DNA of 64,000 bases from Bacteriovoracia bacterium (GCA_050246755.1 JBFWVL010000001.1:128001-192000); one strand, 5' to 3'; positions 15,336-61,410 are shown, numbered from the stretch's first letter. Translations and numbers: made by a program. Notes: generated from the letters alone by a model not told the origin.

Positions 15336-15800
15336 ATGAAGGGTGAAAAGTTTTTCGACGTGAAAATGATCGCGCTGCTCATCGGCCTCGTTTTTCTGCT
15401 CGCCGCCATGGCCGCCCTCGGCGCGCCCTCCCTCGACAAACGCCTCTACTATACCGGCCTCGAAGCCCGCGAGTTCTTCTCCCGCCTTTCCGCGCAGGAT
15501 GCCGCCAACTACCGCCTCAACGAAATCATCGATCTCGGCTTCATCCTTCTCTATACCTTCACACTCGTGCTCACCTTCGTGCGCCTTTATCCCCGCTCCA
15601 AGCTCCTCTACTGGATCGCCTTCGCGCCGGCGGTTTTCGATCTCATCGAAACCGGTTCGATCCTTCACGTACTGAATTTCGGTGAGACATTTCCCGTGCT
15701 GAGCTGGCTGGGCGCGGCTACTTTTTTAAAGTGGGCCAGCACGGTGGTCGCGCTGGGACTGATTTTACGAGGTGGGTTGAGGAGGGTTAGTTTGGGGTGA
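15336..15800 (+). CDS. Hypothetical membrane protein (4 TM)
   Basis: Hydrophobic segments; DLGFILLYT, FDLIET and LKW motifs. Confidence 0.7.
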   Translation: MKGEKFFDVKMIALLIGLVFLLAAMAALGAPSLDKRLYYTGLEAREFFSRLSAQDAANYRLNEIIDLGFILLYTFTLVLTFVRLYPRSKLLYWIAFAPAVFDLIETGSILHVLNFGETFPVLSWLGAATFLKWASTVVALGLILRGGLRRVSLG

Positions 15801-15993
15801 GGGTTAGCTGGGATATTACCTGGCGCACGCAAACACATTGGCAAAGAGAGGTTGCGCGGCATTCTTCGTTTTGGTGCTATTGTCTCATGCGGTAGATCCT
15901 TCGGGTTTAGTGAGCGTAGCCAATAGCCAGCTAGACCAATTGAGGTAACGCACTTTTATTCACCAAATATTTTTATGCTTTCACCAATTTTAG

Positions 15994-16530
15994 CTAGAGC
16001 CCTACCACGGTTAACGGCCGATTGCCCACGCGCGTGATAAACTCCATCTTCTCTGTTTCAATTTGCCACTCTTTATCTACAAGGCGCAGTTGAAGTTCAT
16101 ATCCTGCCGTAGCACCATCCGAAGCCGTTTTTCGCAATCTGACAAAAAGTAGATCTCTTTTCTGCCAACAGAGAGACGAGATAGTTAAACGATTGTGCTT
16201 ATTTTTATCCCCAAAACCGCTCCTCAAAGATTGTCCCTTAAAAAGGGCAAATTCCTTATCTTTATAGAACCCTCTCAATGCTAAAAGAGTCGCCTCCATC
16301 TCTTCAGAAGAACTGTTATCGCTCAATAAAAATTCTTTCACCCCAGAATCTTTTGTTTTTTCTACAAAAAATTTATATGAGGCAATTTTTGCTTCTGCCG
16401 TCAAGCGCGCCTGTTCTTTCGAATCGCTATAAACGGAAGACTGGCATTTACGAGATGCGCCCTCTGCATCAAATCTCAAAAATATTGATGCCATCAAAAC
16501 TACGAAGCATACATTTAATCGCATTCTCAT
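15994..16530 (-). CDS. Small secreted hypothetical protein, paralog of 20466..20966
   Basis: Signal peptide; shares RL..[EQ]AK, I..LCWQ and the C-terminal beta-strand pattern with 20466..20966. Confidence 0.7.
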   Translation of the reverse strand: MRMRLNVCFVVLMASIFLRFDAEGASRKCQSSVYSDSKEQARLTAEAKIASYKFFVEKTKDSGVKEFLLSDNSSSEEMEATLLALRGFYKDKEFALFKGQSLRSGFGDKNKHNRLTISSLCWQKRDLLFVRLRKTASDGATAGYELQLRLVDKEWQIETEKMEFITRVGNRPLTVVGL

Positions 16531-16551
16531 CTGGCACGAATAATTAGGGCG

Positions 16552-16992
16552 TTAATTCTTCGTTTGTTCGTTTTTCTTTGGAACTAAAGCCTTTGCGACT
16601 AGCTTATTCTTTTCCCGAAGCTCCACAATGAATGCATTGGGAGTTGCCAAAAAATTAACTCTGGCCGAATCGAACATGTGAGGTAAAGATCGGCTATTCT
16701 CATTATTCTGCTTAGACCGCTTAGCAAAAGACATATTTCCAGTTTGCTTCAAAAGCAGGAAGGCCGATTCAATTTCTTTTCCATTTTTATCTTTTAATAC
16801 TGCGCGCAGGTCTGTTGCAGCCGCGGACCTATGGTCTTCATCTGTTCTTTCGCGAGAATATGAAACTCTAGATAAATTTAAAGAAAATTTACCGTGGTCC
16901 TTGATCACAAGTCCCAGGATTGCGTCTTGCCCAGGCTCAATACCATGACTATTGAATGGAAAAAATAATAGACAAAAAATAATGAACTTCAT
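16552..16992 (-). CDS. Small secreted beta-rich hypothetical protein resembling the post-protease domain of 21017..24439
   Basis: GAGG RBS; signal peptide; LRAVLKDKNGKEIESA..ARVNFLATPNAFIVEL compared with YLVELKTISNELISSS..LEFTVPVTANGVFVDI. Confidence 0.7.
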   Translation of the reverse strand: MKFIIFCLLFFPFNSHGIEPGQDAILGLVIKDHGKFSLNLSRVSYSRERTDEDHRSAAATDLRAVLKDKNGKEIESAFLLLKQTGNMSFAKRSKQNNENSRSLPHMFDSARVNFLATPNAFIVELREKNKLVAKALVPKKNEQTKN

Positions 16993-17120
16993 TCTACCTC
17001 AAAGTTTAAATCTGCTGCGCCAGCCAATTTCAATCTAGACCATTCTCTAACTTTGATTGTTGACCAGCCGGAAGTTTTAGCTCCACTCCTAGAGCTTAGT
17101 TCCAGCCGTTTGACGTTCCT
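16989..17120 (-). pseudogene. Decayed orphan C-terminus of module X
   Basis: Manual translation ...KRLEL...RLKLAGAADLNFEVE* compared with RRLEI...KEVGRSAEINFSVP*; its stop overlaps the next ATG (ATGA). Confidence 0.4.
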
Positions 17121-17179
17121 GAGAAAACCGGCCCACGCCAAATCCGTAAAAAGCCGCTTATACGCCCCTACCGACCAAA

Positions 17180-17974
17180 TTATTCTTTATCAAAAATCAA
17201 AATACCGAAGGCCCTGATCGTAGTAATGTCTTTTTTTACTCCAGAGAACGTGGCCTCATACTTTGTGCGCTTTAAAATCTCTCCAAGCTTAAAATCCGCC
17301 TGATTCTTCTTATTGTCATACAAATAGAGGTCGTTGTCGGCCAAGCCACTTTCAAGAAAAAGCGGCCGTGAACCTCCCGCTGACTGAGCTAGCTGGGCAC
17401 TACATTTAATTGTATCCGAGACGCCGCCCGCCCTAGAAACGATAACGCAATCTGGGGCCCGATAGAGCGCCGTAATCAGCTTGTTTCCCAAGCCGTCCAA
17501 TGCCTTTCTCGAAAAGAAAGCCGGAAAAGGCAGGATATATGAAACCTTCCGGCGCTGAACATACGCTTGAACCTCACCTTCTCCGCCATCGCCGGGGATA
17601 TTTTCAAGAGACTCGAACTCCAGCGGAAAAAGCATTATGAGCAAATAAAACACACTAAATGTAATAAAAAAAATCGGAAGAGCACTTCCCCGCACTTCGC
17701 GGAAAGCAGAAAACCTATAACGCCGCAGGCAAATCTGAAAAAATTTTACAAAGAAAAAAGCAAAGCTCGCCAGAACGCAGAGAAAAGAAATACCTTTAAA
17801 AAGGCTCGAAATAGGTACGGCAACCCAAAAATAATTGAAAAATACGAGAACTCCAAAAAATAAAATAGCCGGAATTTCAAAAACAAATAGAACCCAAAAA
17901 ATAGCGGTACTTAACAATAGAAAACTGACGTAATCCGAGCTTGGGTCTTTTAAAAATTTTCGAATTCTATTCAT
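17180..17974 (-). CDS. Hypothetical membrane protein (3-4 N-terminal TMs plus a soluble domain)
   Basis: 264-aa AT-rich ORF with Phe-rich hydrophobic segments. Confidence 0.6.
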   Translation of the reverse strand: MNRIRKFLKDPSSDYVSFLLLSTAIFWVLFVFEIPAILFFGVLVFFNYFWVAVPISSLFKGISFLCVLASFAFFFVKFFQICLRRYRFSAFREVRGSALPIFFITFSVFYLLIMLFPLEFESLENIPGDGGEGEVQAYVQRRKVSYILPFPAFFSRKALDGLGNKLITALYRAPDCVIVSRAGGVSDTIKCSAQLAQSAGGSRPLFLESGLADNDLYLYDNKKNQADFKLGEILKRTKYEATFSGVKKDITTIRAFGILIFDKE

Positions 17975-18098
17975 ACCGCAATTATCTCTACGGCCCGACC
18001 ACGCATGCCGGAGGCATTTATCTTTTTAAGACTCAGTCGTCTTGTCACCAACTTAAAAGACAAATATTTAGAATCCACAAAATTCCCTTATCGACCAT

Positions 18099-18929
18099 CT
18101 ATTCGGCCCCGTACACTTCGATTTCACGCGTCCTGCCTTGCCCGAACCATTGAATTTTTCGAACGAGCTTTAATCCTAGCCGCGACGGCTGGTTTTTACT
18201 TAAAATTTCAACCATTGCCCTATTCGGAAAGGGGAGAACTCCCGGAAGAATCTCCCTAGAATAGACCACTGCGTCCACATGAAAATCTTTCAGGGCTAAC
18301 CGTGGCTCATTCTGACGATAAAAAAACAAAAAATATGAGGGCAGAAGAAGTAATGCTTCAAATGGTCGTATAAGAAACGCCAAAAAATAAAATACCGTAT
18401 AGCCCCACGCCTTCCCGGAGCAAAGGCAAGCTAGGGCAGATAGAGCAAAGGCGCAGAATGGCAGCTCAGACATGAATGCGCGGCTCATCCCCACGAAAAA
18501 TGGATACGTGCAGACGGTGGCTGCGCCCAGAGCGGCCGCGGCTTGGCTCAAACCCAAACCTCTTAAGACGGCCCTGCTACTGAACGTCGCTAACGCAAGT
18601 AAGGAGATGCCGAATAAAATAACCGCCGTTTCGATTGTTCCCGTTAGACAAAGAAACAAAGACCCTAGTATTGGGTGGTATGTTGAATATTGAATTTTTG
18701 AAGTAAGTAATTCATACAGCGCGGCGCCCAGTGGTCGAGTGGAAAATGTCTCCCTCCACCGGACGGCGTAGTTCCAATGGAGAAAATCATCGGATTGAAA
18801 GTCGAATGGGTTAAAATAAAAATATAGGCCAAGAAGGACACAAGGAAGAACGAGAAATATATTAGAGACCATGCACCTAAAAGAAGACTTCAGTAACGCA
18901 AATCCATTTGGGGGAAAATATGACTCCAT
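18099..18929 (-). CDS. GT-C/ArnT-like membrane glycosyltransferase, apparently truncated or internally deleted
   Basis: DDFLH after TM1, RPLG, SRAFMSELP and LAFLIRP motifs; only 276 aa. Confidence 0.5.
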   Translation of the reverse strand: MESYFPPNGFALLKSSFRCMVSNIFLVLPCVLLGLYFYFNPFDFQSDDFLHWNYAVRWRETFSTRPLGAALYELLTSKIQYSTYHPILGSLFLCLTGTIETAVILFGISLLALATFSSRAVLRGLGLSQAAAALGAATVCTYPFFVGMSRAFMSELPFCAFALSALACLCSGKAWGYTVFYFLAFLIRPFEALLLLPSYFLFFYRQNEPRLALKDFHVDAVVYSREILPGVLPFPNRAMVEILSKNQPSRLGLKLVRKIQWFGQGRTREIEVYGAE

Positions 18930-19059
18930 TTATCTCTTTATCCTTAAGAAAGAAAAATAAAAGACTAGGCCTACTGAAAATTCGGAATTATAAAAAATGA
19001 CAAAGAGTTCGCCCAACTAAGAACCTCCATGGCGACTCTTTTAAATTAAGAGGTCTTTA

Positions 19060-19295
19060 TTAATCTGCTATTCCTTGAGCGACTGCCTCTGAAATTAAAA
19101 TTTCTCCCTTCGCCTCACTTAATACAAACCCATAAATATACCCCTCATCACGATATTTTTTGGCCCCCAAGAATACTATAATTTTCTCGCCCACAGCCTG
19201 GTCGGAAAATCGAGAGAAGGTCAAAACCGAGTACCTTACAGCCGCCTAGCGTACAAATATTCTATCCCTGTAAAGAATACAGGCCCATCCTTCAG
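19060..19295 (-). pseudogene. Degenerate copy of the 20466..20966 gene
   Basis: Manual translation GEKIIVFLGAKKYRDEGYIYGFVLSEAKGEILISEAVAQGIAD* compared with AEKNILVGGSKKYRSGGGYFYRFVLSEVKGELLVSEAVAQGIGD*; upstream EYLYARRL (vs EHLYVSRL) lies in another frame; no start codon. Confidence 0.85.
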
Positions 19296-19299
19296 GAGG

Positions 19300-20034
19300 C
19301 TATTTTGCAGATTTCCCGAAGCAAGTTATGGGGGCTAAATCATTCCCATCAGGATCCAATTTAAAATCACAAGTCTGCGTTAGAAATAGCGAGTTGGTCG
19401 TAACGGCGCGGACATCCCATTTTCCGCCATTCCACTTTGGGAAAACCTCCCACATAAGATGCTTGGGATCGAAACCCCAAAGCATCGCCGCAAATCTCGA
19501 ATCAGAATAATACTTTGAAACCGCTAGTCTTGCTATCGCCTGCCTCTCGAGAGGTCTCATGCCTATTAAAGCCTGCGGCTCGCCAACATCTTCCCCATAA
19601 AACTCGTAGGACATGGGGCGCTTAACAATAAATAGCATGACGCAAAATAGCGCTATCGAGCCTAACAAAAAATATACATTTTTAATTCCACGGAAACTCG
19701 AGTCTCCATCGCGTGCAAAAAATAAAATAATAAATGCAGCACTCGCGGGAAGTGCAAATCCAGGAATCAAAAAAAGACTTGAGCTGGGCGAACCGTTAAA
19801 GTTTGAAATTAATTCAAATGAAAATATTAACAATGCATAAAACACCAATAAGATTCCAAAGAATGACGTTAAGGTATTCTTACTTGAGGAAAGTGAAATT
19901 TCTCTGCCGCTAAACGAAGATCGACTGAGTTTCTTCGATAAAAAGAGGGCAGCTATCACAAAAATGCTCGTGACCAATGAAAATACTAAACAGTATAGAA
20001 GTAGCCGAAACTCCTGTGATAAAAATGCCCTCAT
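19300..20034 (-). CDS. Hypothetical membrane protein (4 TM plus a C-terminal domain with a Cys pair)
   Basis: 244-aa ORF; start overlaps the stop of the upstream remnant (ATGA). Confidence 0.65.
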   Translation of the reverse strand: MRAFLSQEFRLLLYCLVFSLVTSIFVIAALFLSKKLSRSSFSGREISLSSSKNTLTSFFGILLVFYALLIFSFELISNFNGSPSSSLFLIPGFALPASAAFIILFFARDGDSSFRGIKNVYFLLGSIALFCVMLFIVKRPMSYEFYGEDVGEPQALIGMRPLERQAIARLAVSKYYSDSRFAAMLWGFDPKHLMWEVFPKWNGGKWDVRAVTTNSLFLTQTCDFKLDPDGNDLAPITCFGKSAK

Positions 20035-20228
20035 GGTATTATGGTAATCAACCTTTCTACACTTGCCCCGAACGACTTCCGCTCTTCTTGGATTTTCATC
20101 TCAAGTAAGTAAATTCTGGATTCCAAAACCAAGAGCCTCGCTTGTATGCGACTAATTTTATCTGAGTTAGTTTTTGTGACATTGGCGGGAGAAACAAGAC
20201 CAGCTTGCCGAGTCAGAAAATTTTTCAA
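20031..20228 (-). pseudogene. Orphan C-terminal fragment of module X
   Basis: TNSDKISRIQARLLVLESRIYLLEMKIQEERKSFGASVERLITIIP* aligns almost without gaps to NDPDRRLEIESQILILSRRIANARSQGAELEKEVGRSAEINFSVP*; an in-frame stop lies just upstream; no signal peptide. Confidence 0.65.
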
Positions 20229-20465
20229 AAAAATTCACCGATTTTTAAATTTATTCCCAACATCTATTTAGATGAAGCACTTTGCCGTGCGATTATTGCA
20301 GAAGATAACTCTTATGCTGAAATCCTCGTAAAACAGGGGGCAACGTCACCATGTGTCTCTAACCCCTAAGAGGCAAAATCCAAAAGCTATAATTTTCCCG
20401 AAAACTCTGCGCCCACTGACGACGGCAAAGCTTCAGCCAAATGAACTACTACTCTATGATATTCG

Positions 20466-20966
20466 CTAATCCCCGATCCCCTGAGCAACTGCTTCTGACA
20501 CCAAAAGCTCTCCCTTTACCTCACTCAACACAAATCGATAAAAATAGCCGCCGCCACTACGATACTTCTTCGATCCACCCACCAATATGTTTTTCTCAGC
20601 CTGCCAACATAGAAAATCAATCCCAATTACAATGACGCCCTTACCAGCATCAGGAATTGACGAATATCCACCTGCATAAAAAGTCTGGCCTTTAAACTTC
20701 TTAGATAACCTAGAAACGTAGAGATGCTCATCTGCATTTTTCTCTAGAGTACGATCAACAAGACCTATTTTTTTTATTTCAGTGGGCAAATTTTCAGCCA
20801 ACCAAAAAAAAACTTTCTCTTTCGCCTGGCTTTCAAGCCGAAATCTAACCGACGGCTTAACCTTTAAATCATTGACCTTTAAACACCCAGCATGGCCAGT
20901 AACACTGCATAAAAACAAAAGAAAAATAGCAAAATATTTTTTATACCAATTAACCATAAATGACAT
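20466..20966 (-). CDS. Small secreted hypothetical protein (candidate cognate partner or inhibitor of the upstream protease)
   Basis: GAGGG RBS; signal peptide ending GHA; 2 Cys in the mature part; two further paralogous copies downstream. Confidence 0.75.
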   Translation of the reverse strand: MSFMVNWYKKYFAIFLLFLCSVTGHAGCLKVNDLKVKPSVRFRLESQAKEKVFFWLAENLPTEIKKIGLVDRTLEKNADEHLYVSRLSKKFKGQTFYAGGYSSIPDAGKGVIVIGIDFLCWQAEKNILVGGSKKYRSGGGYFYRFVLSEVKGELLVSEAVAQGIGD

Positions 20967-21016
20967 ATTACCCTCAATGACAACATCACGGTAATAAATT
21001 AAGTATGGATCACCAA

Positions 21017-24000
21017 CTATGGAACGGAAAAATTAATTTCTGCGCTTCGCCCTACTTCTTTTTCCAGCTCAGCCCCCTGAGACCTCGCGTTAGCAATTCG
21101 CCTAGATAAAATTAGAATCTGGCTCTCTATTTCCAACCGCCTATCAGGATCATTTTCATCTCTTAATCTCGACCGAAGATCAAATATATCTTGCCGCCAA
21201 GAAGCAATCGCAGACCTTAGTGCAAACCAAGGACGCTTAGGCACAAGACTCACATTCACCTGCCATCTATGACTTCCCGACACAAGCCTGAATGACTCTG
21301 CCTCTAGATATCGCTCATGATGCTTAGGTTCGACCCTAGTCCCGTCATAAAATACATTATAAACAAACATATATTCGGGATTTTCGGGAGACTTGACGAA
21401 ATCCGCCCTCAGCCTATTTCGTCCTCCTACAATATTACCTCCATCAGTATCGAGAACCACGAAAGGGCTCGGATCCTCCAATACTGGCGGCTCTAAAGCA
21501 CTTAGCCTAACAAAGGCACCAGCAATTTGTTTTCCAATTTCATGCTTACCAGCATCCAAATAGGAGTCAGCCAGAAATGAATCTACAAGCAGGCTCGACG
21601 CAAGTGGTGCCAATTGTTTACTTAGTATCTGTTTAGCTAATGAAATTTTCCGCGCCAAAACAGCAGCCCGCAATCTAGATATCTCCGCTGACAACTTTGC
21701 TCGTCCAGAGATTGCATTAACAATAAAAGCTCGATCTGGAATGTATTTAACCTCTTCATCTATTAAATCAGCTGGTATAACCACCGAGCCTAATTTAACT
21801 TTTCCATTTAAGTTATCTCGAAAAATATCTACGAATACGCCATTCGCAGTGACAGGAACAGTAAATTCCAACTCAGGCGAACCCCCAGGGAGGTTGATAT
21901 CCTCCTTTGCCGCAAATCTCGAAGATGAAATTAATTCATTGGAAATAGTCTTTAACTCAACGAGGTATTCCCCGTCGGAGTTGCTAGGAACTTCGCGATT
22001 TGAATATAAAACATACGTGCTAAACCTATTAAATACGTTTTGACTAATATTTCCTGAAATCAGAATTTGGCTCCCAGGAAAGTTCATGGTCACTTTTTGC
22101 GGACCTGGTATATTTCTTCTAAAGACCTGCACATAATCATTATAAGAAAACCAAAAAGGATTGGGGTCTATATATGGCTGAGCTGGGTCAATGCTATATT
22201 CATTCGACTGCCCTTGCATCATTACATCAATTTGGGCAAGCCTTTTTCCGCGACCTATCTCAATTGGTATAGAAAAATCATAGTTAGAATACCCCTCAAA
22301 TCTAGCTTGGGGATTAAGTGGATCAATAATTCGAGGAGCATGCCATCCCTCTTCGCCGGAGGGTGGCGAGCAGCCGGTTCTACTATCGAATCTAATACAA
22401 AAAGTGTGCCCCAGCTCATGCGCCAAACTTTTAATCAAACCACTCTGCACATGAAAAGCAGGCTCATCAAAGTTGGCCAGTCCAACCGAGTCATGAAGTT
22501 CGTGCGGCGAAGGAAACTTCTGATGAAAGTAGTTATTGGAAACAATCCCAACAAGATGAGTGATCGTCGTATCATTATAAAATTCAGTGGAATTTTCTTT
22601 ATCTACTAGCGCTTTAAGAATATTTCGATCATTTTGAATATCTAACACATCTCCCGTACCCCATACTTTTCCAATTAAAAAATCTCTAGTGAAATCTGTG
22701 TCCGCAGCCGGATAAAGTTGCTTCAAATATGGAAATCCGCCAAAAATGGAAGTCTCATAGGAAAATTCATCTGGCACCTTTGGCTCCGGACCCTTCTCAA
22801 AGCCAGTTCTAACAAAGCCGAGATGAAGGGGCTTTGTTTTTCTAACTCTGACAATAATTTTTCTTTCGGAAATAATTCCGTTTTCTGAATTCCTTAAAAC
22901 GACGTGCATTGTCTTGTTAAGACCGAGAAATGCGCTAGTGGCTGGAACAGGATTTATCTCAAATGTGACGGTTGAACTCCCGCTTTCATCTGTGATTACT
23001 GGATTTGGATGTAAAGTGATCCCATTCCATTCCATGGTCGATTTTGCAATATCGACAGCGGCATTTATTCCCGAAACCACTACATCAGCATTCTTTCCTG
23101 CCACCAGATCTACCTCTTGACCATTACAGAAAGATGTATACTGGCCGGAGCAAAGATTTGGATTTTCAACCACTTGAAACACCGAATACTCACCGGGATA
23201 AGGCTTCACATAATAGGCCGAGTAACCAGAATGGTTTGGATTTGAAGAATGGAGTCGAAATGCGGCTTCACCTTTATTATTGAAAGCACCGGCGTAGAAG
23301 GCAATGCTTAGAAAAGCTTCTGTATTTTCTGATATTGCTTTTGGATTAGCCAACATTATCGGATCTCTACCGAGCGCAAAATTGTAGAGTGCGGGTCCGT
23401 TGAAAGCACTAGCAGAAGTCGCTACTTCGTCGTTATCGTTGATTGAAAAATCATGAAGATCACACGGGAAATCGGGGTTGAGATAGCCAAATCCGGTAAA
23501 AGGAGAACTTAGGCTATCTACGTCTTCCCTCGCGTATGTTCTAGCAAGTTCTTCCACAAATCTATTTCCGGCTGAATACCTGGAAAGCAAAAGAAACTGC
23601 TGTCTTGTTGCTCCAATCATCCTAGTGCCAGAAAAAACAACAGATCCCTTGGAATTAATATCAGCACCTCCAAGGCAAATATTATCAAAATGAATTGAAC
23701 CCAAATTGGTAGGAATGGCCTCAAGAAAATTCGCCGAATTCCTAACTACTATCTCGTCAGTATTTCCCGTTCTTCTCTTATACATGAGCCAGCCATTGTC
23801 TTTCACAATAGGTTCGCCGACTATAGTCGCTGGGCGTGCGCCTTGATCCACAAACTCTAGACCGTTACCAGACGAAAAATAGATAGCGGTGGTTCGATAG
23901 CCTGCATCACTAGGATGTAAATCAACTAAAAAAGCCTGCGCAGAACCGGAGGGAGACACACTATGACCGCGAATTGCTTGAACTCTCAAATTATTTCCAG

Positions 24001-24439
24001 CAGCACCAGCGTCAACCAAGGTCTCATAATAGAGCTGTGCACTAGGCGAACTACCATTGTTTGTGAACGAGTAGACACCCCTTCCCCATCCATCTGGTGC
24101 GGTCGGAATTCCTACGGTAGGTGTAGTTATTCCATAAAATGTTCCATTGTCATCAAATGAAAGGCTCGGCAAAAAACTATTACTAAATCCAATTATCGGA
24201 ACGGGCGTCGTAAGAGGAAATTCACTCCCAATATAAAGGAGTTCATTGGCAGAATTTACGGCAACTTGACCACCATTATTTAAAGCAGGCGTTCCGTCTC
24301 TATTCTGAAATGCCGAAATCTCTTTTCCATTATATTCTAACCGAGTTCCGGGAAGCACGAGTTCAGTTTTATAGGCGTAGAATGGAGCTGCTGTCGCGCA
24401 TAGAGGAAGAAGCGCTACAAGAAAGAATACTCCTCTCAT
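21017..24439 (-). CDS. Large secreted protein: NxxGxxxF-repeat beta-propeller + HExxH metalloprotease + beta domain + helical bundle + module X
   Basis: Likely start MRGVFF at 24439 (ATGA overlap, GGGAGGGG RBS); repeats LNNGGQVAV, INSKGSVVF, INDNDEVAT, FNNKGEAAF; LVAGK; LAHELGHTF...WH...DVMM. Confidence 0.8.
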   Translation of the reverse strand: MRGVFFLVALLPLCATAAPFYAYKTELVLPGTRLEYNGKEISAFQNRDGTPALNNGGQVAVNSANELLYIGSEFPLTTPVPIIGFSNSFLPSLSFDDNGTFYGITTPTVGIPTAPDGWGRGVYSFTNNGSSPSAQLYYETLVDAGAAGNNLRVQAIRGHSVSPSGSAQAFLVDLHPSDAGYRTTAIYFSSGNGLEFVDQGARPATIVGEPIVKDNGWLMYKRRTGNTDEIVVRNSANFLEAIPTNLGSIHFDNICLGGADINSKGSVVFSGTRMIGATRQQFLLLSRYSAGNRFVEELARTYAREDVDSLSSPFTGFGYLNPDFPCDLHDFSINDNDEVATSASAFNGPALYNFALGRDPIMLANPKAISENTEAFLSIAFYAGAFNNKGEAAFRLHSSNPNHSGYSAYYVKPYPGEYSVFQVVENPNLCSGQYTSFCNGQEVDLVAGKNADVVVSGINAAVDIAKSTMEWNGITLHPNPVITDESGSSTVTFEINPVPATSAFLGLNKTMHVVLRNSENGIISERKIIVRVRKTKPLHLGFVRTGFEKGPEPKVPDEFSYETSIFGGFPYLKQLYPAADTDFTRDFLIGKVWGTGDVLDIQNDRNILKALVDKENSTEFYNDTTITHLVGIVSNNYFHQKFPSPHELHDSVGLANFDEPAFHVQSGLIKSLAHELGHTFCIRFDSRTGCSPPSGEEGWHAPRIIDPLNPQARFEGYSNYDFSIPIEIGRGKRLAQIDVMMQGQSNEYSIDPAQPYIDPNPFWFSYNDYVQVFRRNIPGPQKVTMNFPGSQILISGNISQNVFNRFSTYVLYSNREVPSNSDGEYLVELKTISNELISSSRFAAKEDINLPGGSPELEFTVPVTANGVFVDIFRDNLNGKVKLGSVVIPADLIDEEVKYIPDRAFIVNAISGRAKLSAEISRLRAAVLARKISLAKQILSKQLAPLASSLLVDSFLADSYLDAGKHEIGKQIAGAFVRLSALEPPVLEDPSPFVVLDTDGGNIVGGRNRLRADFVKSPENPEYMFVYNVFYDGTRVEPKHHERYLEAESFRLVSGSHRWQVNVSLVPKRPWFALRSAIASWRQDIFDLRSRLRDENDPDRRLEIESQILILSRRIANARSQGAELEKEVGRSAEINFSVP

Positions 24440-27315
24440 TTTCCCCTCCCAGCCGCACCGCAAGCATCAGCGAAATCAAGCGTACATGCCCGTTGCCACA
24501 ATCTCGTCTTCGTGAAATCGTCGCCGTCTTCGGAATACATATTTCCTAGCTCGTAACAAGCACCGCCGTCGCCGGGAGGCGCCCAGCAGGCGTTGGTCAG
24601 CAGCTGCCTCTTAGCTTCACGCTCGCCGTCATACGGAAGATCGAGCTTCTTTTTTGCCAGCGGTGGCGCTCCGCTAACATTCACCGTCACGAAGGTGAAT
24701 ACGAGGTTGCCATCGTTATCCACCACGGCGAGGTTAACTCCGTAAGTACCCGGTGTTTCGTACACGTGAGAAGCCACGGCCGTCGTCGTCTCCTCCGATC
24801 CATCGCCCCAGTTCCAGCTGTAGCTGGCAATGGTTCCATCATAGTCATAAGATTCCAAGCCGTTCACATTGAGCGTGAAGGGAGCAACGCCCGAGAGCGC
24901 GCCATTACGAATGATCGCTCTAGGGGCATGGCCCGCATTCACGTTGAATACTTCCATAAAAGCCCTCTGCGGCGGCGTGAAGCCAACACCCGAGGTCACC
25001 CCCATGCTCACAAAATAATTGCGCGCGAGCGGATAGGTATAGTTCACGAACTGCCCGTTCGCGATGCCTTGCCCGTCGGGATTTAGGAAATCCGAGAAGC
25101 GCCAGTTCCAGTTAATGATGGTCCCGCCGACATTGGGATTCACGGCGTAGCTTCCGTTGAAGCTCAAGGGTGTGCCAAGGAGGACTTCGCGAGGCGGCCC
25201 GACCACAAACTGATTCACGGGCGCCATGCTGCCGCTGATTCCCGGCTGCACAAGGATAATAGCCTCTCCTTCAGCTCCATAAGCATCTCTCGTGCGGAGA
25301 CGGACATTGTAGTTTCCGGAAGCATTGTAAGCGTGAGTGACTACTGGGTCGGTAGTCACGGTCTCGCCAAACGCATCGCCGAAATTCCAGCGGTACTGCA
25401 CGATTCCGTCCGAGTCGCTCGCCTCCGACGCGTCGAACGTTACGGTGCGGGGAAAAGATCCGAGCAGGCCACTCACCCGAAATTTTGCGGTAGGCATATC
25501 GGTATCCGTAATCACCACCGTGATATTGGCCGACGTGGTGGCGCCGAGGTTATCGGTGGCCGTGAAAGTGGCGTTATAAGTGCCGGTAGCTGGGTAGTTG
25601 TGCAGAATAAAGGCAGCGGCGGTATCAAACGTGCGTTCACGGGTTCCGTCGCCAAAATCCCACCACATGGATTCGATCGTTCCGTCGGGGTCGGTTACGC
25701 CGCCGACCGCCAATGCAAGAGCTAGCCTTACCTGGAAAGGTGCGCCAGGCGTTTTCTGGTTAACGAAGGGAGCAGCGCCCAGCACGGGAGGAAAGTTCGC
25801 CACTACCGACACGGGAATGGAAACAACGGTGCTAAGTGGAGGGGTGCCGTTATCAACAATGGTTACTTCGAGAGTGTCGGTACCTTCGTTCTCACCAGCC
25901 TGGAAACTAACAAGGCCAGCGGAAGAAACGGAGGCGGTTCCGTATGCGCTTTGCTTCGTCACGAAGAAAGAGCGCACCTGCCAGAAATCCGCGTCGGCCG
26001 AAGTGATTTGGCTGGTTCTCGTCGCATTGATCCCGGCGGTGATCGAAGGAGCGGATCCCGTGGGCGCGCGGTTAGCGGGGGCGCTCACTTCAACGACGGC
26101 AAGCGAAATATTGCCGGTCATGAAGGGAGTGGTGGTTTCCGCGATACGCATTTCCATCACGTAGTAGCCAGGAACGTCCGGCGTGAAACTGTAATTTACG
26201 TCCGTGCTCACGGGATCGGTATTGATCGCGAGCGCGGAACCGGTTGGTTTCGAGATCAAGCGCCACTCGAAGGCAAGGGGCTGGTCATTCACGTCGTGGG
26301 AATTAACCGCGGTTACTTGCGCCCCTTCTCCGAGAGCGATCGGGCTGGCCACGGCTTCGGCAATTCCGATCGGCGCGGTGGGTGGAATATAGGGCTCGGG
26401 AACGATTACGGTGTCGTTCGTGGCAAAAAACGCATTTTTACGAATTGCATTCTTCACGACTCCGCCCGAGGTAAAGCGAATCTCCACGTCTTTGCTGCCT
26501 TCGGTGGAAAACACGGGAGTATTGAGCGTGATGCTCGTGGAGCCAGAGCTCGTAACGGCCGTCGTAATGCCGCCAAGTTTTACTTCGGGGCTAGAACCAA
26601 AATTGGCGCCAGAGATCGTGATCGTGGTACCACCCGCGGCGGCCACGAGGTGGGGCGTTACGTCGGAAATTCTCGGGAAATCCGTTCCGGTCGTTTGCTC
26701 CACCACGTTGAACGAAATGCTTTCTTCGCCCACGGGGGATTTTAGGGAGGCGAGAGCGGCCACGAGCTGGTTCTTGAGCGAAACCTTCTCGTCGCGCTGG
26801 GCCGTAAGCTGGGCGATCTCGGTGGGGTCGGTCGCGGCCGCGATGGCGGCGTTTAGAGAAACAATATCGGCCTCGAGCGAAACGATCGCGTCGCGGATTT
26901 GCACGGCCTGGGCTTTGTCCTGGATAAACATCGAGGCCAGGAAGGTATGCGATTTGATTTCGGTTAAGGCGCCGGCATCATAGATCCACATCTCTTGGGA
27001 AGGATGCTCGAGAGCAACGGTGGCGCCATCGAATTTACCTTCGAGCAGCACTTCACTATCCGTAAATCCCGTATTGGGAATGAGGTAGAGGCTCACGTGA
27101 TCGCCCTGGGCGGGAGTATTCGAAGGAGACACGAATATTCGCACCAGGGGATCACTCAGCTTCTTGATCTTGAGAGTCCGGTCTCTCTTGGCTTTCTCCA
27201 TCTTGGCGATGAGAGTTTTTACCTTAATATTCGTTACCGAACCCTTTGCCGCAAAGGCGGCATCGGCGAAGTTTGCAACGCAGAGAGAGAGCACTAATAA
27301 AATGATTTTTTTCAT
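24436..27315 (-). CDS. Secreted adhesin-like protein: module X + IPT/TIG + Ig/cadherin-like + about 4 PKD + C-terminal Sel1-like repeat
   Basis: AAGGTTITISGANFG (IPT); WDFGDG, WNFGD, WNWGDG and SHVYETPGTY (PKD); AC...ACYELGNMY...RAC...AC (Sel1-like). Confidence 0.85.
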   Translation of the reverse strand: MKKIILLVLSLCVANFADAAFAAKGSVTNIKVKTLIAKMEKAKRDRTLKIKKLSDPLVRIFVSPSNTPAQGDHVSLYLIPNTGFTDSEVLLEGKFDGATVALEHPSQEMWIYDAGALTEIKSHTFLASMFIQDKAQAVQIRDAIVSLEADIVSLNAAIAAATDPTEIAQLTAQRDEKVSLKNQLVAALASLKSPVGEESISFNVVEQTTGTDFPRISDVTPHLVAAAGGTTITISGANFGSSPEVKLGGITTAVTSSGSTSITLNTPVFSTEGSKDVEIRFTSGGVVKNAIRKNAFFATNDTVIVPEPYIPPTAPIGIAEAVASPIALGEGAQVTAVNSHDVNDQPLAFEWRLISKPTGSALAINTDPVSTDVNYSFTPDVPGYYVMEMRIAETTTPFMTGNISLAVVEVSAPANRAPTGSAPSITAGINATRTSQITSADADFWQVRSFFVTKQSAYGTASVSSAGLVSFQAGENEGTDTLEVTIVDNGTPPLSTVVSIPVSVVANFPPVLGAAPFVNQKTPGAPFQVRLALALAVGGVTDPDGTIESMWWDFGDGTRERTFDTAAAFILHNYPATGTYNATFTATDNLGATTSANITVVITDTDMPTAKFRVSGLLGSFPRTVTFDASEASDSDGIVQYRWNFGDAFGETVTTDPVVTHAYNASGNYNVRLRTRDAYGAEGEAIILVQPGISGSMAPVNQFVVGPPREVLLGTPLSFNGSYAVNPNVGGTIINWNWRFSDFLNPDGQGIANGQFVNYTYPLARNYFVSMGVTSGVGFTPPQRAFMEVFNVNAGHAPRAIIRNGALSGVAPFTLNVNGLESYDYDGTIASYSWNWGDGSEETTTAVASHVYETPGTYGVNLAVVDNDGNLVFTFVTVNVSGAPPLAKKKLDLPYDGEREAKRQLLTNACWAPPGDGGACYELGNMYSEDGDDFTKTRLWQRACTLDFADACGAAGRGK

Positions 27316-27327
27316 GTCCGGGGTTCC

Positions 27328-27837
27328 TTAGTTCAAATTGGTAAAAGAAGAGAAATTGTAGGTCTCGCGGCCGATTCTATTTTTGAGGCCTTCTAGCTCC
27401 GCCTGGAGCCGCGTTTGGAGTTGGAGATTTTTATTGAGCTCGGCCTCAAGGGCGGCGAGGTCATCTGGGTCAGAGGTTTCGGCGATCTCGGCGCGGAGGC
27501 TTGCAATCGTTTGCTCTGTTACTTTTAGAGATTCAGAGAGGCGATCGGTTTGCCGGGCGTCGGCCAAGGAGATCAGAAAAGAAATCGCGTGGGCGCCGTT
27601 TCCTGGAACTTTAAATACCCAGAGGTCTTTGGCGGGATGCTCGAGGGTCGCAGGGTAGCCATCAAAGTTGGCGTCGAGCACCACGTAGGACTTTTCAAAA
27701 TTCGTGTTGGCGCGGATGAAGAGATTCACCTGCCCGTTCGCGGCCCGATTTTCCGAAATACTAAGAAAAGAACTGGTTTTTGGGCCGGCCAAGGCCGCAA
27801 AAGGCAAAAAGAGGCAAAGCAGTGCAATAAATTTCAT
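27328..27837 (-). CDS. Secreted protein consisting only of module X
   Basis: GAGGA RBS; signal peptide; FDG.PATLEHP..LW shared with the N-terminus of 24436..27315; helical hairpin with a central SDP. Confidence 0.8.
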   Translation of the reverse strand: MKFIALLCLFLPFAALAGPKTSSFLSISENRAANGQVNLFIRANTNFEKSYVVLDANFDGYPATLEHPAKDLWVFKVPGNGAHAISFLISLADARQTDRLSESLKVTEQTIASLRAEIAETSDPDDLAALEAELNKNLQLQTRLQAELEGLKNRIGRETYNFSSFTNLN

Positions 27838-27846
27838 ATTTTCCTC

Positions 27847-28839
27847 TTACTGGGCCGTGAGGGTGATGGATACGGGCTGGCCCACGGGGGTGCGAACCTC
27901 GGCGAGGTGCGCGCGCGTGGAATTGAGCAAAGCTTGATTGCGGTCGATCTCGGCCTGGATGGCGGCGATCTCGGTAGGGTTCGTGGTATTGCCAAGAGCG
28001 GTGGTCAGGCGAGTGATCTCGGCCACGTAGAAATTAATGGCGTCGTTGAGGGATTTGGCCTCTTTCTTGTTTTGTAGAAACAAGCTGGCCACGAACTCTT
28101 GGTCGCCCGCTACGAGGGGAGAAGTGGTCCCGTAGCTCTGGCTATCGGTGATGCGCGTGAGGGGGAGATCGGATCCGGCAAAAGAGGCCGAAACGTAGAA
28201 TTCGAAATTAGAATTCGTGGGTCCGTTTCTCGTGGTGAGAAGCACGGTGGCCTTTGCGCCAACGGCGTAGCTCGGCTGGTCGGCGCTCAGAATAAGATTA
28301 TAGGTGGGAGTTGGTACGGGGTGCGGCTGGTAGCCCGGAAGGATTTCGATTCCGTTCACGAGGGCGTCCCCCACTACGCTCGCGAAATTGAGGTTGATCA
28401 CGCCGGATGGATTGGCGTTTACGGTAAACTCCCTCACGGTGGCGATCCCGATGCCCCCGGTCGCGCCCACGATATCGAAGTTGGTTAAAACCTGGGAGCC
28501 ATTGATACCGATGTTGAAAATACGGGAGCCGCCCGTGGTGTGATAGAGCTCCGCGAAATGAAGGCGAACGAGGTGGGCTGCGCCGGCCTCGAGGCCAGGG
28601 ATCGCGTAGGAGAAGTTTCCGTAGCGGCAGGTTTGGTAAACGGCGAGCGGCGCGGGGTTCGTTACTTGGCTTGCGTTGATCGGGATGCCGGTGGTGTAAG
28701 GGGTTCCGCCGCTAAAGTACTGGTCGGCGGTATAGTTTCCATTCGCCACCACCGTGCCGGCACCGATTGCGATCGGAGAGTCGGCGTGAGCAAAAGTGCT
28801 GCAGAAGAAAAGAGCGAGCGCCAAGCAGGAACGGAACAT
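27847..28839 (-). CDS. Secreted malectin-domain protein with C-terminal module X
   Basis: YTADQYFSGG, VYQTCRYGNFSYAIP, VRLHFAELY, RIFNIGING, NFDI and LVNGIEI (malectin); GGAGGG RBS before ATG 28839. Confidence 0.88.
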   Translation of the reverse strand: MFRSCLALALFFCSTFAHADSPIAIGAGTVVANGNYTADQYFSGGTPYTTGIPINASQVTNPAPLAVYQTCRYGNFSYAIPGLEAGAAHLVRLHFAELYHTTGGSRIFNIGINGSQVLTNFDIVGATGGIGIATVREFTVNANPSGVINLNFASVVGDALVNGIEILPGYQPHPVPTPTYNLILSADQPSYAVGAKATVLLTTRNGPTNSNFEFYVSASFAGSDLPLTRITDSQSYGTTSPLVAGDQEFVASLFLQNKKEAKSLNDAINFYVAEITRLTTALGNTTNPTEIAAIQAEIDRNQALLNSTRAHLAEVRTPVGQPVSITLTAQ

Positions 28840-29183
28840 GAGCAACCCTCCATAGGTAGCAAAAATCACCAACCACCATGTTGGCGCACTCGACTTTCAG
28901 GCGAGATTTAAATTCGAAGGAGATAGGAACACGAAATAAACTAATCCGGCAATATCTTTTTTTTAGGCTAAAAGAGATTTAATATTCGTCCGAACTGGCT
29001 GCATTGCAACTAATGCGGCGAGAAATATACCGAAAAAAATTTACTTTTTTTCCCGTGAGAAATGATGATTTCTCGCTAGGCAGAGTGGCTGGTGTTTTTT
29101 CTAAAGAAACGAAGAAAAGACCGCACGCATTAAACTCGATGCGGCAGAATTCTTCCTACACGGTGAGAGGCGCGCGATAGCCG

Positions 29184-29221
29184 GAAAATAGAAAGGGCGG
29201 AGCAACTAGTGCCCCGCCCCC
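29184..29221 (-). terminator. Intrinsic terminator after the ArsR-SRPBCC operon
   Basis: Minus strand GGGCGGGGCA-CTAGT-TGCTCCGCCC followed by TTTCTATTTT. Confidence 0.7.
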
Positions 29222-29235
29222 GCTAAGTACAATCT

Positions 29236-30174
29236 CTAATTTTTCTGCAGATACTCTTCGAGCTTGTCGAACGATCCGGTCCAGCCCTGGGTCATTCCCG
29301 CTTTGGCTTGGTGGAAGGTTTCGCGCTCGGCCGCAGAGGCCTCGCCGTAGACTTCCCACTGGATCGTCACGCGGGTTTTGTTCTCGGATTCCGCCGTGAA
29401 GCAAACCGTAGTGAGCATGGTCTCCGGCCAAGTGGGCGCCGCGGGATGGCGGGAGACATTTCCTTCTTTGTCACAGAAAATCTGCGTATAAACGAGCTTG
29501 CTGGGCTTCGTGATTTCCTTGTAGTGGATCTTCCCGTACATCGTGATCTGGCCGTTGCTCATAGAATAGAAATTCGTCCCTCCGGCCTTGATATCGGCCT
29601 CGATGCTTTTCATGGTGAAACCAGTAGGCGCCAGCCACTGGGAGAAATGCTTGGGATTGGTCCACATCTCGAACATTTTCTCGATGGGCGCCTCGAAGCT
29701 GCGGTTGATCACGAAGCGGTCCACGGGAGAGAGGAACTCGGCGAGTCGGTCCCAGGTGGAATCGCCTCCAGCCTTCTTGATGAATTTCTTGGTTTCCTTG
29801 GCGGCTTCTTCGGTGGGCAGCGCCATGGTCATTTCCATCTTGGTCTTGCCGGCTTTTTCGGAGAACTCCACCGTCACCCGGAATAGCGGGGCCTGTTCAT
29901 CGTTGCCGCCGTGGTCGTAGACCATGCGGGAATATTTTTCCACCTCGAGGTATTTGGTTTTGTTCACGTAGTCGGTGCCGTCGGGCCCGTGCATGGTGTA
30001 GTGCCAGGTGCCGCCGGTGCGGATATCGGAATTGTGCGTGGTGATGGTGAAACCACGGGGCCCCCACCAATGCGCTTTTTGCTTGGGATCGGTCCACGCG
30101 TCCCAGACCATCTTCACGGGGGCATCGTAGACGCGGCTGATATAGAGTTCGTTGGGTTTATTTTTTACGGGCAT
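29236..30174 (-). CDS. Tandem SRPBCC (AHSA1/START-like) domain protein
   Basis: Two copies of the pattern R...AP...(W/F)..WT.P.....W..P.GF; C-terminal GWTGSFDKL. Confidence 0.92.
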   Translation of the reverse strand: MPVKNKPNELYISRVYDAPVKMVWDAWTDPKQKAHWWGPRGFTITTHNSDIRTGGTWHYTMHGPDGTDYVNKTKYLEVEKYSRMVYDHGGNDEQAPLFRVTVEFSEKAGKTKMEMTMALPTEEAAKETKKFIKKAGGDSTWDRLAEFLSPVDRFVINRSFEAPIEKMFEMWTNPKHFSQWLAPTGFTMKSIEADIKAGGTNFYSMSNGQITMYGKIHYKEITKPSKLVYTQIFCDKEGNVSRHPAAPTWPETMLTTVCFTAESENKTRVTIQWEVYGEASAAERETFHQAKAGMTQGWTGSFDKLEEYLQKN

Positions 30175-59320: not shown

Positions 59321-60445
59321 ATGCGAAAATCGCTAGAACCTCCCCCTGAAAACGAGACCGGATCGGGGCCTAAATTGCTTTCGAAATATAAAATTCTCGG
59401 GTTCGTGATCGCCTCGTTGCTTTCCGCAAATGCGGGGGCCCTCGAGATCTCCAAGAACAAAGCCGGGCACATTATCCTCAGCGGTATTTCCTGCGAAGAC
59501 ATTCCCGCGCAGAGTAAAGCGCTGAGGCAATGGACCGAAAGCACGGATGCCACCTGCCGTTTCGGGCGCGTGCGTAAGAAGGGAGCGCTCTGCGAAATGG
59601 ATTTGCAGAACTGCTTGCCCGCGCACGTAAAAAAATACCAAGGCGCCAATCCCGCGAAGGATGGGCCTAATTGCTGGAATCTCGCCCTCGTTACCAAAAA
59701 TCTTCTGCCCTATCTGCGCATGTCTTCCAATGAAGAGATGAGCTTCTTCATGAATTCCGGCATGTGCCAGCAAATCGGCAATGGAGCAAAGCCCGCCCCC
59801 GGCGATATCGGCGCGATCCGGAAAAAAGATACCAACTGCCAGCCCGGAGAAGCCGCCTGCGAGGTGCACGGTTTCATCTACGTTTCAGAGCAGCTGGCTT
59901 ACTCAAAAAACAGCCAGGACGCCCTCGACTCCTACGCCCTCCAGGACATTAATCACGTATACTCCATGTACGACGCCGGCCCATTCACGTGCAGCGAAGA
60001 AGGCAATTCCAGCGCCTGCCCCGCTCACCAAATCGATTTTTTCCGCTGCCAATCGTTCCCGGATTTTCTCGCCAAGGCTAAAGCAGCCGCGGAATACCGG
60101 AAGGCTTTCGAAGTCCTCGACTTTGCGGAGTGTAAAGTCTCGGGTGCGTCGATGCGCCCCGTGGTCTTCGACCAAAAAGAAAAAACGAATATCGCCGCCG
60201 CCATCGGAGCGGTCACCGGATTTCTGAACCGGGCCGAGGCGGCCACGAAATCCCCGGACGAAATTTTCCTCTATGAAGCGCTGGGCGTTCGTTTGCGCTC
60301 GATGGCCGAACAAGTAAATTTATTTCCCTACGCCCCGGTGAACCCCGGCTTTCCCAGCGGCAAGCGGCAGCTGGACGAGAAATGGTGGAAAGCGGTGGAT
60401 CCCGATCCGGCCCAGCGGTCCACCCAGGAATGGCCCTTTCCCTAA
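59321..60445 (+). CDS. Secreted hypothetical protein with papain/NlpC-P60-like Cys-His motifs
   Basis: GPNCWNLAL...PGDIGAI...HGFIYV...YSKN; signal-like segment ending AGA; start uncertain. Confidence 0.6.
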   Translation: MRKSLEPPPENETGSGPKLLSKYKILGFVIASLLSANAGALEISKNKAGHIILSGISCEDIPAQSKALRQWTESTDATCRFGRVRKKGALCEMDLQNCLPAHVKKYQGANPAKDGPNCWNLALVTKNLLPYLRMSSNEEMSFFMNSGMCQQIGNGAKPAPGDIGAIRKKDTNCQPGEAACEVHGFIYVSEQLAYSKNSQDALDSYALQDINHVYSMYDAGPFTCSEEGNSSACPAHQIDFFRCQSFPDFLAKAKAAAEYRKAFEVLDFAECKVSGASMRPVVFDQKEKTNIAAAIGAVTGFLNRAEAATKSPDEIFLYEALGVRLRSMAEQVNLFPYAPVNPGFPSGKRQLDEKWWKAVDPDPAQRSTQEWPFP

Positions 60446-60483: not shown

Positions 60484-61410
60484 ATGCCCTATTTCGTAAC
60501 CTTACTCCTATTTTTCGCGGCGCTTTCCGGCCCACCTGCGCACGCAAAAACTTCTTCCGCCGATTGCGTGGATTGCGGCACGAAAAAGAGCAAGGCCGGG
60601 TCGTTTAAAACAAGTTCTATAGAAACGATGATCGACCATCTCAGCGGCATTCCCCCTGCCCTTCCCCAGAAAGTGCAAACCGCCGCGCTCTATGGCGGGC
60701 ATAAGATCGAAGAGATGAAAGCGGGCTACCCCTGGAACGGCATCGGCCGCCTATTTCCCAACGCGAAATCCGGCACGGACTTTTGCACCGCCGTGCGGGT
60801 CAGCGCCTGCCACATCATGAGCGCCGGTCACTGCGCCCGCGACGCGAACGGAAGCTACGAAAAACAGATCACCTACGTTCCGCCCTTCGAAAAGAAGGCG
60901 TACTTCGTGGATAAAGTTCTGGCCGGCGAGGGAAATTTCCTCAAAGACCGTTCGCTGGACTGGGCCGTGATGCGGCTCGAGGATTCGGCGTCGGGGAACC
61001 GCGACGGCTGGATGGGAATTGCCGACACCAAGGGCGGCGAGCTCGTGGGCAAGACCTTCGTGCATTCCGGCTACCATCTGGATCTTTCTCCCAACGCGAA
61101 ATTCGCCTACGTAGACGATCAGGCGAAGGTGATCAAGACCAATAAGGGAATCTTTTCCGGCAACGCCAACCACGTTTTCCTGCGCGCCAACGCCGGCCGC
61201 GGCGGATCGGGCGGGCCGGTATTTCGGCTCGACGATAGCGGCCAGGCCTGGCTCGTTTGCTTGGCGAATGCGGGAGTATCGGTAGAGGGTCAGGGCACCA
61301 CCGCCGTGCTCGGCGCCGACGAAACCGAGCACCTCACCCAGTGCGCGGCCAGCAACGCTTTCTTCGCCAAGGTCCAGCAATTCATGGCAGAAAATCCCTG
61401 TAAGCCCTAA
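60484..61410 (+). CDS. Secreted trypsin-like (V8/glutamyl endopeptidase-like) serine protease
   Basis: PWNGIGRL, CTA, SAGHC, DWAVMRL and GGSGGP motifs. Confidence 0.88.
   Translation: MPYFVTLLLFFAALSGPPAHAKTSSADCVDCGTKKSKAGSFKTSSIETMIDHLSGIPPALPQKVQTAALYGGHKIEEMKAGYPWNGIGRLFPNAKSGTDFCTAVRVSACHIMSAGHCARDANGSYEKQITYVPPFEKKAYFVDKVLAGEGNFLKDRSLDWAVMRLEDSASGNRDGWMGIADTKGGELVGKTFVHSGYHLDLSPNAKFAYVDDQAKVIKTNKGIFSGNANHVFLRANAGRGGSGGPVFRLDDSGQAWLVCLANAGVSVEGQGTTAVLGADETEHLTQCAASNAFFAKVQQFMAENPCKP

Follow-up and report, generated by a model that had tools for sequence, protein, structure and literature searches.

A probable record of sequential gene displacement at the 3′ end of a secreted-protein operon in a Bacteriovoracia bacterium

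For the orphan immunity gene arrays of the Vibrio cholerae type VI secretion system (T6SS), a process of sequential displacement has been proposed (Kirchberger et al. 2017, PMC5361080). In the part of that paper that sets out the proposal, an incoming effector-immunity module is anchored by the conserved upstream region and its far end is joined illegitimately, so that the old effector is replaced and its immunity gene is shifted downstream, once along with a 3′ piece of that effector. Fragments downstream of the main gene also make up the orphan toxin-immunity modules of Rhs and contact-dependent inhibition (CDI) loci, as described in sections of Koskiniemi et al. (2014, PMC3967940). Here we analyze a 5-kb tail of genes and gene fragments (15994-20966) behind a four-gene operon for secreted proteins in a Bacteriovoracia bacterium (GCA_050246755.1, JBFWVL010000001.1:128001-192000). 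All genes of this locus are on the minus strand of the stretch analyzed, which is 64,000 nucleotides (nt) long and is referred to below as the window. The tail holds the stump of a gene of another kind than the present fourth gene (fX1) and the stump of a paralogue of that gene's follower (fA), and it is part of a foreign block joined to the end of the third gene. We give a probability of roughly 65% to the reading that the tail records successive displacements at the 3′ end of a conserved secreted-protein operon.

Module X and its truncated copy behind the operon

The products of the four operon genes begin with hydrophobic, signal-peptide-like segments (judged by eye) and share a module that we call module X. 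Gene 1 (27847..28872, 341 amino acids (aa), GC content at third codon positions (GC3) 0.73) encodes a signal peptide, a malectin domain (Pfam Malectin, E 2.1e-19) and a C-terminal module X, and gene 2 (27328..27837, 169 aa, GC3 0.59) encodes a signal peptide and module X alone. In gene 3 (24436..27315, 959 aa, GC3 0.65) module X is N-terminal and is followed by TIG, four PKD stretches and a Cys-rich tail (Pfam). Gene 4 (21017..24439, 1140 aa from its ATG, GC3 0.34) encodes a signal peptide, an HELGH motif at residue 674 and a C-terminal module X. The motif suggests that gene 4 is a putative zinc metalloprotease; HExxH is common to its relatives P0133, P0116, P0107 and P0134, the last of which has weak Reprolysin-type Pfam matches.

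The four module X copies of the window align across about 155 columns, and a profile built from them, searched against 1.84 billion proteins, found 328 representatives with E ≤ 0.001, of which 191 reach E ≤ 1e-10. Within 150 listed proteins, 140 near-full-length domains are placed N-terminally (62), alone (44), C-terminally (33) or internally (1). An AlphaFold2 model of the gene 2 product (predicted local distance difference test (pLDDT) 92) shows a beta-sandwich, a helical hairpin (94-120/124-150) and a final strand (153-164). This order of beta-sandwich, antiparallel helical hairpin and terminal strand, with a (T)DP loop and a G ahead of the final strand, is found in genes 1-4 and in P0153, a protein introduced below. 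Module X is not covered by any Pfam or NCBIfam model, and in a PDB search no chain covered the whole module (best template-modelling (TM) score by query 0.35); by sequence, the sandwich resembles the BIg domain of SiiE (E 2e-5) and the hairpin resembles coiled coils. Proteins that carry module X at their C-terminus bear varied payloads, with HExxH in 6 of 41 such representatives and PKD or malectin in others. Tandem pairs of the module (~340 aa) were seen in many proteins (P0006, P0011, P0012 and others), three matched stretches in P0004 and a fusion to RCC1 repeats in P0040, from which it follows that the partners of module X are far more varied than in this operon. The operon family is uncharacterised; a literature search on its domain combination, the only search for module X in print, found no paper.

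Downstream of gene 4, the original prediction had pointed to 20031-20228 as encoding only the last helix and strand of module X; an open reading frame (ORF) of 65 aa with a TTG start is present there. We found the prediction to be correct. A search with the 65-aa ORF against longer proteins gave a single match, P0153, a 282-aa protein encoded on another contig (54,970 nt) with a PKD domain and a complete module X at residues 127-273 (hidden Markov model (HMM) E 7.8e-30) and without a PADLOC or PHROGs match. Positions 20174..20034 of the window match the last 47 residues of P0153 without a gap, with 41/47 identities and 45/47 positives (tBLASTn E 6e-21), and the two end at the identical stop position. 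Upstream, beyond 20174, no frame of the window resembles P0153. The homology begins in the loop between the module X helices, and the fragment, fX1 (20034..20174, 47 codons; frame open from 20228, stop at 20031-20033), comprises helix 2 and the terminal strand in register, with the G conserved. Because it lacks the beta-sandwich and helix 1, fX1 cannot fold as module X. Judged by its sequence, fX1 is a true 3′ stump of a PKD + module-X gene that was cut in the inter-helix loop.

The D and the P of the (T)DP loop are each present in 86-89% of the 140 domains, and the loop reads DSD in P0153 and NSD in fX1 (20160-20174). That the intact P0153 shares the change from DP to SD marks it as a trait of the lineage and not decay of the stump. 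The closest representatives of the P0153 module are the PKD-X proteins P0058 and P0087, and its identity to the module of gene 4 is 29%. Since fX1 derives from another kind of gene (PKD + X) than the present protease, the X-ending gene at this position was replaced.

This scar was unrecognisable from the genome's own paralogues and required one sampled relative, P0153. The predicted, nearly gapless alignment of fX1 to the protease C-terminus was found to be weak, with a Smith-Waterman score of 42 (z 3.8) that was reached by 5 of 1000 shuffles; the score against gene 1 was reached by 15 of 1000, and genes 2 and 3 gave no signal. When the last 150 aa of the protease were compared with 15800-21016 by tBLASTn, 20031-20228 was unmatched among the rows up to E 69, and the best match, itself weak (E 0.045), was inside g9, a gene near the far end of the tail. 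Two module X HMMs, one made from the 4 window copies and one from the 140 domains of the representatives, ranked fX1 first or second of the ORFs without the module, with an E of only 2.6 in a set of 2099 six-frame ORFs. By phmmer against the 150 representatives, the best E was 0.015, and most matches line up in register with the last 40 residues of module X. An end-anchored profile (45 columns, from 138 outside domains) ranked fX1 first of 715 non-module ORF ends, at a score reached by 9 of 20000 shuffles, with chance controls close to it. The proof came from P0153 instead.

A second stump and the composition of the block

Gene 4 is followed after 50 nt by g5 (20466..20966, 166 aa), which encodes a small secreted protein with one N-terminal hydrophobic segment (11-31) and is the prototype of a recurring follower gene. 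Further down the tail, fA (19060..19224) shares this gene's 3′ end: 19188-19063 matches g5 residues 124-166 with 29/43 aa identical (67%; tBLASTn E 2.4e-12, Smith-Waterman z 22), and at the DNA level 19061-19143 and 20467-20549 are 76% identical over 83 nt; 15500-24600 contains no other long direct repeat. fA lacks both an ATG start and a signal peptide, and its matches identify it as the decapitated 3′ remnant, the last ~43-50 codons, of a g5 paralogue. As a truncated paralogue of gene 4's follower, it points to a second truncation event. A third member of the g5 family is possibly found in g10 (15994..16530, 178 aa), the last gene of the low-GC block. BLASTP aligned it with g5 at E 0.003, with 19/63 identical residues at matching positions (91-153 versus 97-154) and a shared LCWQ, and 10 of 1000 shuffles reached the Smith-Waterman score of this pair; a distant relationship between g10 and g5 is possible.

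The DNA likeness between fA and g5, and a distant kinship of g10 with g5, would also be expected if the tail were a degraded duplicate of the genome's own gene 4-g5 region, generated by local tandem duplication and decay. fX1 argues against such an origin, being 87% identical to P0153 but only at z 3.8, and without a tBLASTn match, against the protease end. The module X of its relative P0153 is also far from that of gene 4, the PKD + X architecture of the parent is unlike the protease, and no other piece of gene 4 was found in the tail. We consider this origin highly unlikely.

Small genes of the tail share further features. The codon-position statistics of g5, g9 and g10 are coding-like, their N-termini are hydrophobic and resemble signal peptides (by eye), and none of the three has a family match in Pfam, NCBIfam, PADLOC or PHROGs; across the tail proteins as a whole, these collections gave no match above noise. 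In a collection of 5.8 billion clusters, and within the limits of its word filter, g5 and g6 (the gene after fX1) found only their own entries. The closest neighbours of the ESM Atlas model of g5 (predicted TM score 0.73) are NTF2-like clusters (TM 0.39-0.62), no more than a lead, and an AlphaFold2 model of g5 from a 3-row alignment was unusable (pLDDT 48).

Gene 4 and the tail differ in composition from the rest of the operon. To the GC3 values of 0.73, 0.59 and 0.65 in genes 1-3 correspond values of 0.69-0.77 in the flanking sdhC, sdhA and SRPBCC genes, and every gene from gene 4 through g10 has a GC3 of 0.34-0.47. In 20-codon windows along gene 3, GC3 is 0.55-0.75 in the nine preceding windows and 0.35 in the last, and gene 4 is at 0.20-0.50 from its first codon. 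This sharp break at the gene 3/gene 4 junction marks gene 4 and the tail as foreign to genes 1-3; gene 4 to g10 (to 15994) form one 8.4-kb foreign low-GC block, which joins gene 3 at its very 3′ end. The stop of gene 3 overlaps the ATG of gene 4 as ATGA, but as GC3 has already dropped in the last 20 codons, the crossover that imported gene 4 was probably inside the conserved Cys-rich C-terminus of gene 3 (24380-24440) and not at the ATGA. No integrase or transposase was found among the window ORFs scanned, which fits recombination rather than a mobile element. A plasmid collection held no match for gene 4 (protein) or genes 1-2 (DNA), and the tail DNA had no match in plasmid or phage collections.

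An abrupt jump in composition, here in a window that appears to belong to a contig of 1.9 Mb, might also arise in assembly, if the low-GC block came from another organism of the sample and was joined at shared sequence. With DNA of host composition flanking the block on both sides, this would require two precise false joins, of which the left one would have kept an exact ATGA and a gene 4 that opens with a hydrophobic, signal-peptide-like N-terminus (by eye). We regard a chimera of this kind as scarcely credible.

The uniformity of the block bears on where the replacements took place. GC3 shows no internal step between gene 4 and g10, and there are just two composition boundaries, at ~24440 and ~15994. 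Given the uniformly low GC3 of all pieces, the replacements may have occurred in the donor lineage and the block may have arrived whole, scars included, by a single en-bloc transfer from a low-GC donor, which would amount to one replacement in this genome. Complex arrays do move as stable units by homologous recombination, according to a passage of Kirchberger et al. (PMC5361080). Yet the scars would still need an earlier displacement somewhere, so that a transfer en bloc changes the place and leaves the process the same, and serial donors of similar composition would look alike. We take a single transfer to be a substantial possibility, short of even odds. The prediction that the fourth gene and its partner were replaced repeatedly is borne out for the replacement of an X-ending gene, given fX1 and the 29% identity between the modules, and for a truncation, given fA; with a single GC3 throughout, the repeats may have taken place outside this genome.

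Other parts of the tail

The gene that follows fX1, g6 (19300..20034), has hydrophobic 19-mer segments at 8-36, 52-80, 85-108 and 116-142, which make its product a membrane protein. As predicted, its ATG overlaps the TGA of fX1 as ATGA. In a public protein collection and in the ESM Atlas, g6 starts at a GTG, codon 26, which lies 25 codons downstream of the overlapping ATG (19959-20034). We prefer the ATG since a start at the GTG would cost the protein most of its first hydrophobic segment; the coupling of g6 to fX1 is not certain. The comparisons lend no support to the proposal of ancestral cassettes in which each X end had a different gene coupled to it: g6 has no relatives in the collection, the contig of P0153 included, and its database version begins at the downstream start.

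ATGA overlaps are found at three junctions, gene 3/gene 4, fX1/g6 and fX2/g9, the last of which was predicted to join a more decayed module X remnant (16989-17120) to its downstream gene. fX2 (16989..17186) is an open frame that fills the 188-nt gap between g8 and g9 and ends in LAGAADLNFEVE*, and its stop does overlap the ATG of g9 (16552..16992, 146 aa). The likeness to module X was not recovered by direct comparison, as fX2 gave z ≤ 0.9 pairwise against all four window modules, was unlisted by both module X HMMs and showed no consistent register against the representatives. Its last ~12 residues (LAGAADLNFEVE) match the G-x5-hydrophobic/polar strand pattern of the family and the remainder is unlike it. 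With the end-anchored profile, fX2 was fourth of the 715 non-module ORF ends, its score reached by 13 of 20000 shuffles; chance controls equalled it, namely the cysS end (18 of 20000) and an out-of-frame ORF in a real gene at 59734-59949 (0 of 20000). Two of the top 4 ends are among the tail's 15 minus-strand ORF ends (hypergeometric p 0.0024, suggestive only). On these comparisons, the chances that fX2 is a module-X end are about even. The predicted array of orphan module-X C-termini is thereby reduced to one proven member, fX1, and one unproven, fX2.

That both fX1 and fX2 are open up to their ATGA raises the question of whether they were kept by selection, as upstream frames that feed ribosomes into g6 and g9. 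Only 34 of the 830 stop-to-stop segments of the block are as long as the gap that fX2 fills, and fX1 is free of stops and frameshifts, with 45 of 47 positions conservative relative to P0153. Both frames lack an ATG start (a TTG at most) and an obvious ribosome-binding site upstream (sequence read by eye), the overlapping ATG is not used in the database gene call for g6, and a recent truncation explains an intact frame equally well. Retention by selection is in our view unlikely.

The first 13 residues of g9 resemble the N-terminus of gene 2 (16954-16992 versus 27799-27837; 8/13 identical, MKFI..L.F.PF), which may be merely a likeness between signal peptides. Between fA and fX2 lie two larger ORFs. 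g7 (18099..18929, 276 aa) is a multi-pass membrane ORF with weak PMT_2 and AZOBR_p60025 matches and is possibly a fragment of the membrane part of a GT-C-type glycosyltransferase. The 3′ end of g7 (18183-18275) matched the malectin end/X start of gene 1 (BLASTP 16/33 identical, E 7e-4), and an HMM of the gene 1 family did not detect this piece; it may be a scar of a third kind, which would make g7 a chimeric ORF. g8 (17180..17974, 264 aa) is a membrane ORF whose hydrophobic segments span residues 13-121 and precede a soluble C-terminal part, a layout like that of g6. The Smith-Waterman comparison of g8 and g6 gave z 5.2 but BLASTP gave E 0.27, and these scores do not demonstrate kinship.

The whole locus is bounded by ArsR/SRPBCC genes (29236 upward) and sdhCAB (15197 downward), and a strong terminator-like site (29221-29193) precedes the operon. 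In a promoter and terminator scan of 15700-29300, the number of sites was not above that in shuffled sequence. Distant from the locus, the window encodes two more secreted-looking proteins (60484-61410 and 59321-60445), one with a trypsin-like domain (Pfam E 2.3e-7) and the other Cys-rich, 374 aa long and without a family.

Sequential displacement and its relation to known systems

We infer the mechanism of displacement, the order of events and their separateness as follows. Incoming DNA with a different unit of gene 4 and followers would pair through the conserved upstream genes, a crossover would occur at the extreme 3′ end of gene 3, and the far end would join illegitimately, by homology-facilitated illegitimate recombination. 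In each event the resident gene 4 would be lost except for a 3′ stump, and the stump and the genes downstream of it would be moved further along. The order, oldest first, would be g9 and g10, perhaps with fX2; g7 and g8; fA; fX1 and g6; and finally gene 4 and g5. An order of X end, ATGA-coupled gene and g5-like gene is seen in fX1-g6-fA and, less surely, in fX2-g9-g10. The original prediction had stressed that what was kept is the conserved module instead of a toxin tip, and this stands, as fX1 is the last 47 codons of module X without any payload. The simplest reason would be geometry, because a right-hand illegitimate joint inside the old gene leaves its 3′ end, irrespective of what is encoded there. 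The stumps are dead scars and not a reservoir for switching, since they have no ATG start, no signal peptide and no DNA repeat shared with the live gene.

Several observations weigh against sequential displacement at this locus. g7 and g8 fall outside the three-part pattern, fX2 is not significant alone, and illegitimate joints have no testable signature. The low GC3 is the same in all tail pieces, so that arrival en bloc explains the composition equally well. That g5 and g6 have no relatives among the 5.8 billion clusters leaves no sign of an X gene and its partner travelling as a unit, and no g6 relative stands alongside P0153. A genome scan with PKD-motif patterns, which are not specific to module X, found the module in 0 of 80 loci.

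If sequential displacement is correct, displacement with scars, known from toxin-immunity loci, also shapes an operon for Sec-secreted surface proteins, and here the conserved piece is at the C-terminus of the exchanged gene. The locus would be a record, dated by position, of gene replacement in an uncharacterised operon family. Of the four subunits, gene 4 would be the exchangeable one and the place to seek specificity, whether for a substrate, a target, or pressure from phages or competitors. A more far-reaching idea is that module X acts as a C-terminal docking handle by which exchangeable fourth subunits, such as a protease or a PKD adhesin, attach to a surface complex of genes 1-3, with the followers (the g5 family, the membrane proteins g6/g8, and g9) as cognate protectors in an orphan array, retained for the reason that orphan immunity genes are. 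We think this doubtful, and distinctly improbable as it stands. If true, it would describe a polymorphic effector system of inverted polarity, in which the payload is N-terminal and variable and the handle C-terminal and conserved, and a new class of exchangeable-effector locus outside the type V secretion system (T5SS), the T6SS and Rhs.

Polymorphic toxin loci have as hallmarks RHS repeats, PAAR, VENN/DUF638, haemagglutinin repeats, MafB and a linked secretion system. The predicted resemblance to Rhs/CDI/MafB loci does not extend to membership, as none of these hallmarks was found by Pfam and NCBIfam in the locus proteins or by Pfam in 40 other ORFs of the window. Unlike the proteins of those loci, gene 4 and its relatives vary N-terminally and carry the conserved module at the C-terminus. 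In antigenic variation by silent cassettes (pilS/pilE, vls), several silent copies of a variable region are flanked by DNA of the expression site. In contrast, 15500-24600 has no such repeats, only the one shared by fA and g5 (83 nt, 76%).

Like the Rhs/CDI orphans in the sections of PMC3967940 that describe them, the fragments in this tail lack a start or an export signal, lie downstream of the main gene and are each followed by a small gene of their own, and they resemble displaced pieces of full-length genes that are intact elsewhere (fX1 and P0153; fA and g5). The Rhs orphans described there consist of a short piece of the conserved N-terminal core and the complete variable toxin tip, and recombination with the main gene can reactivate them. 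fX1 differs in being the last 47 codons of a conserved C-terminal module without a payload, and the polarity is inverted. No DNA repeat was detectable between the scars and the 3′ end of the live gene 4, and therefore the scars cannot serve as recombination substrates as Rhs orphans do.

The Vibrio T6SS arrays, as far as the relevant part of PMC5361080 describes them, are alike in their position at the variable 3′ end of a conserved cluster, in the horizontally acquired module that shifts older genes downstream, and in that the 3′ end of a displaced gene may remain; homology-facilitated illegitimate recombination is the mechanism proposed for them as well. The junction of the foreign module in or next to the conserved part is a further likeness, seen here as the GC3 fall in the last 20 codons of gene 3. 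In contrast to those arrays, the scan of window ORFs found no T6SS gene, and the upstream genes encode malectin-X, X and X-TIG-PKD proteins with signal peptides. The genes kept downstream are here at most candidate immunity genes, with g5 and g6 lacking relatives elsewhere and one genome examined, and the displaced gene encoded a Sec-secreted protein with a conserved C-terminal module rather than a T6SS effector. The process, sequential displacement, is thus a known one, and the setting is new, an uncharacterised operon with inverted polarity.

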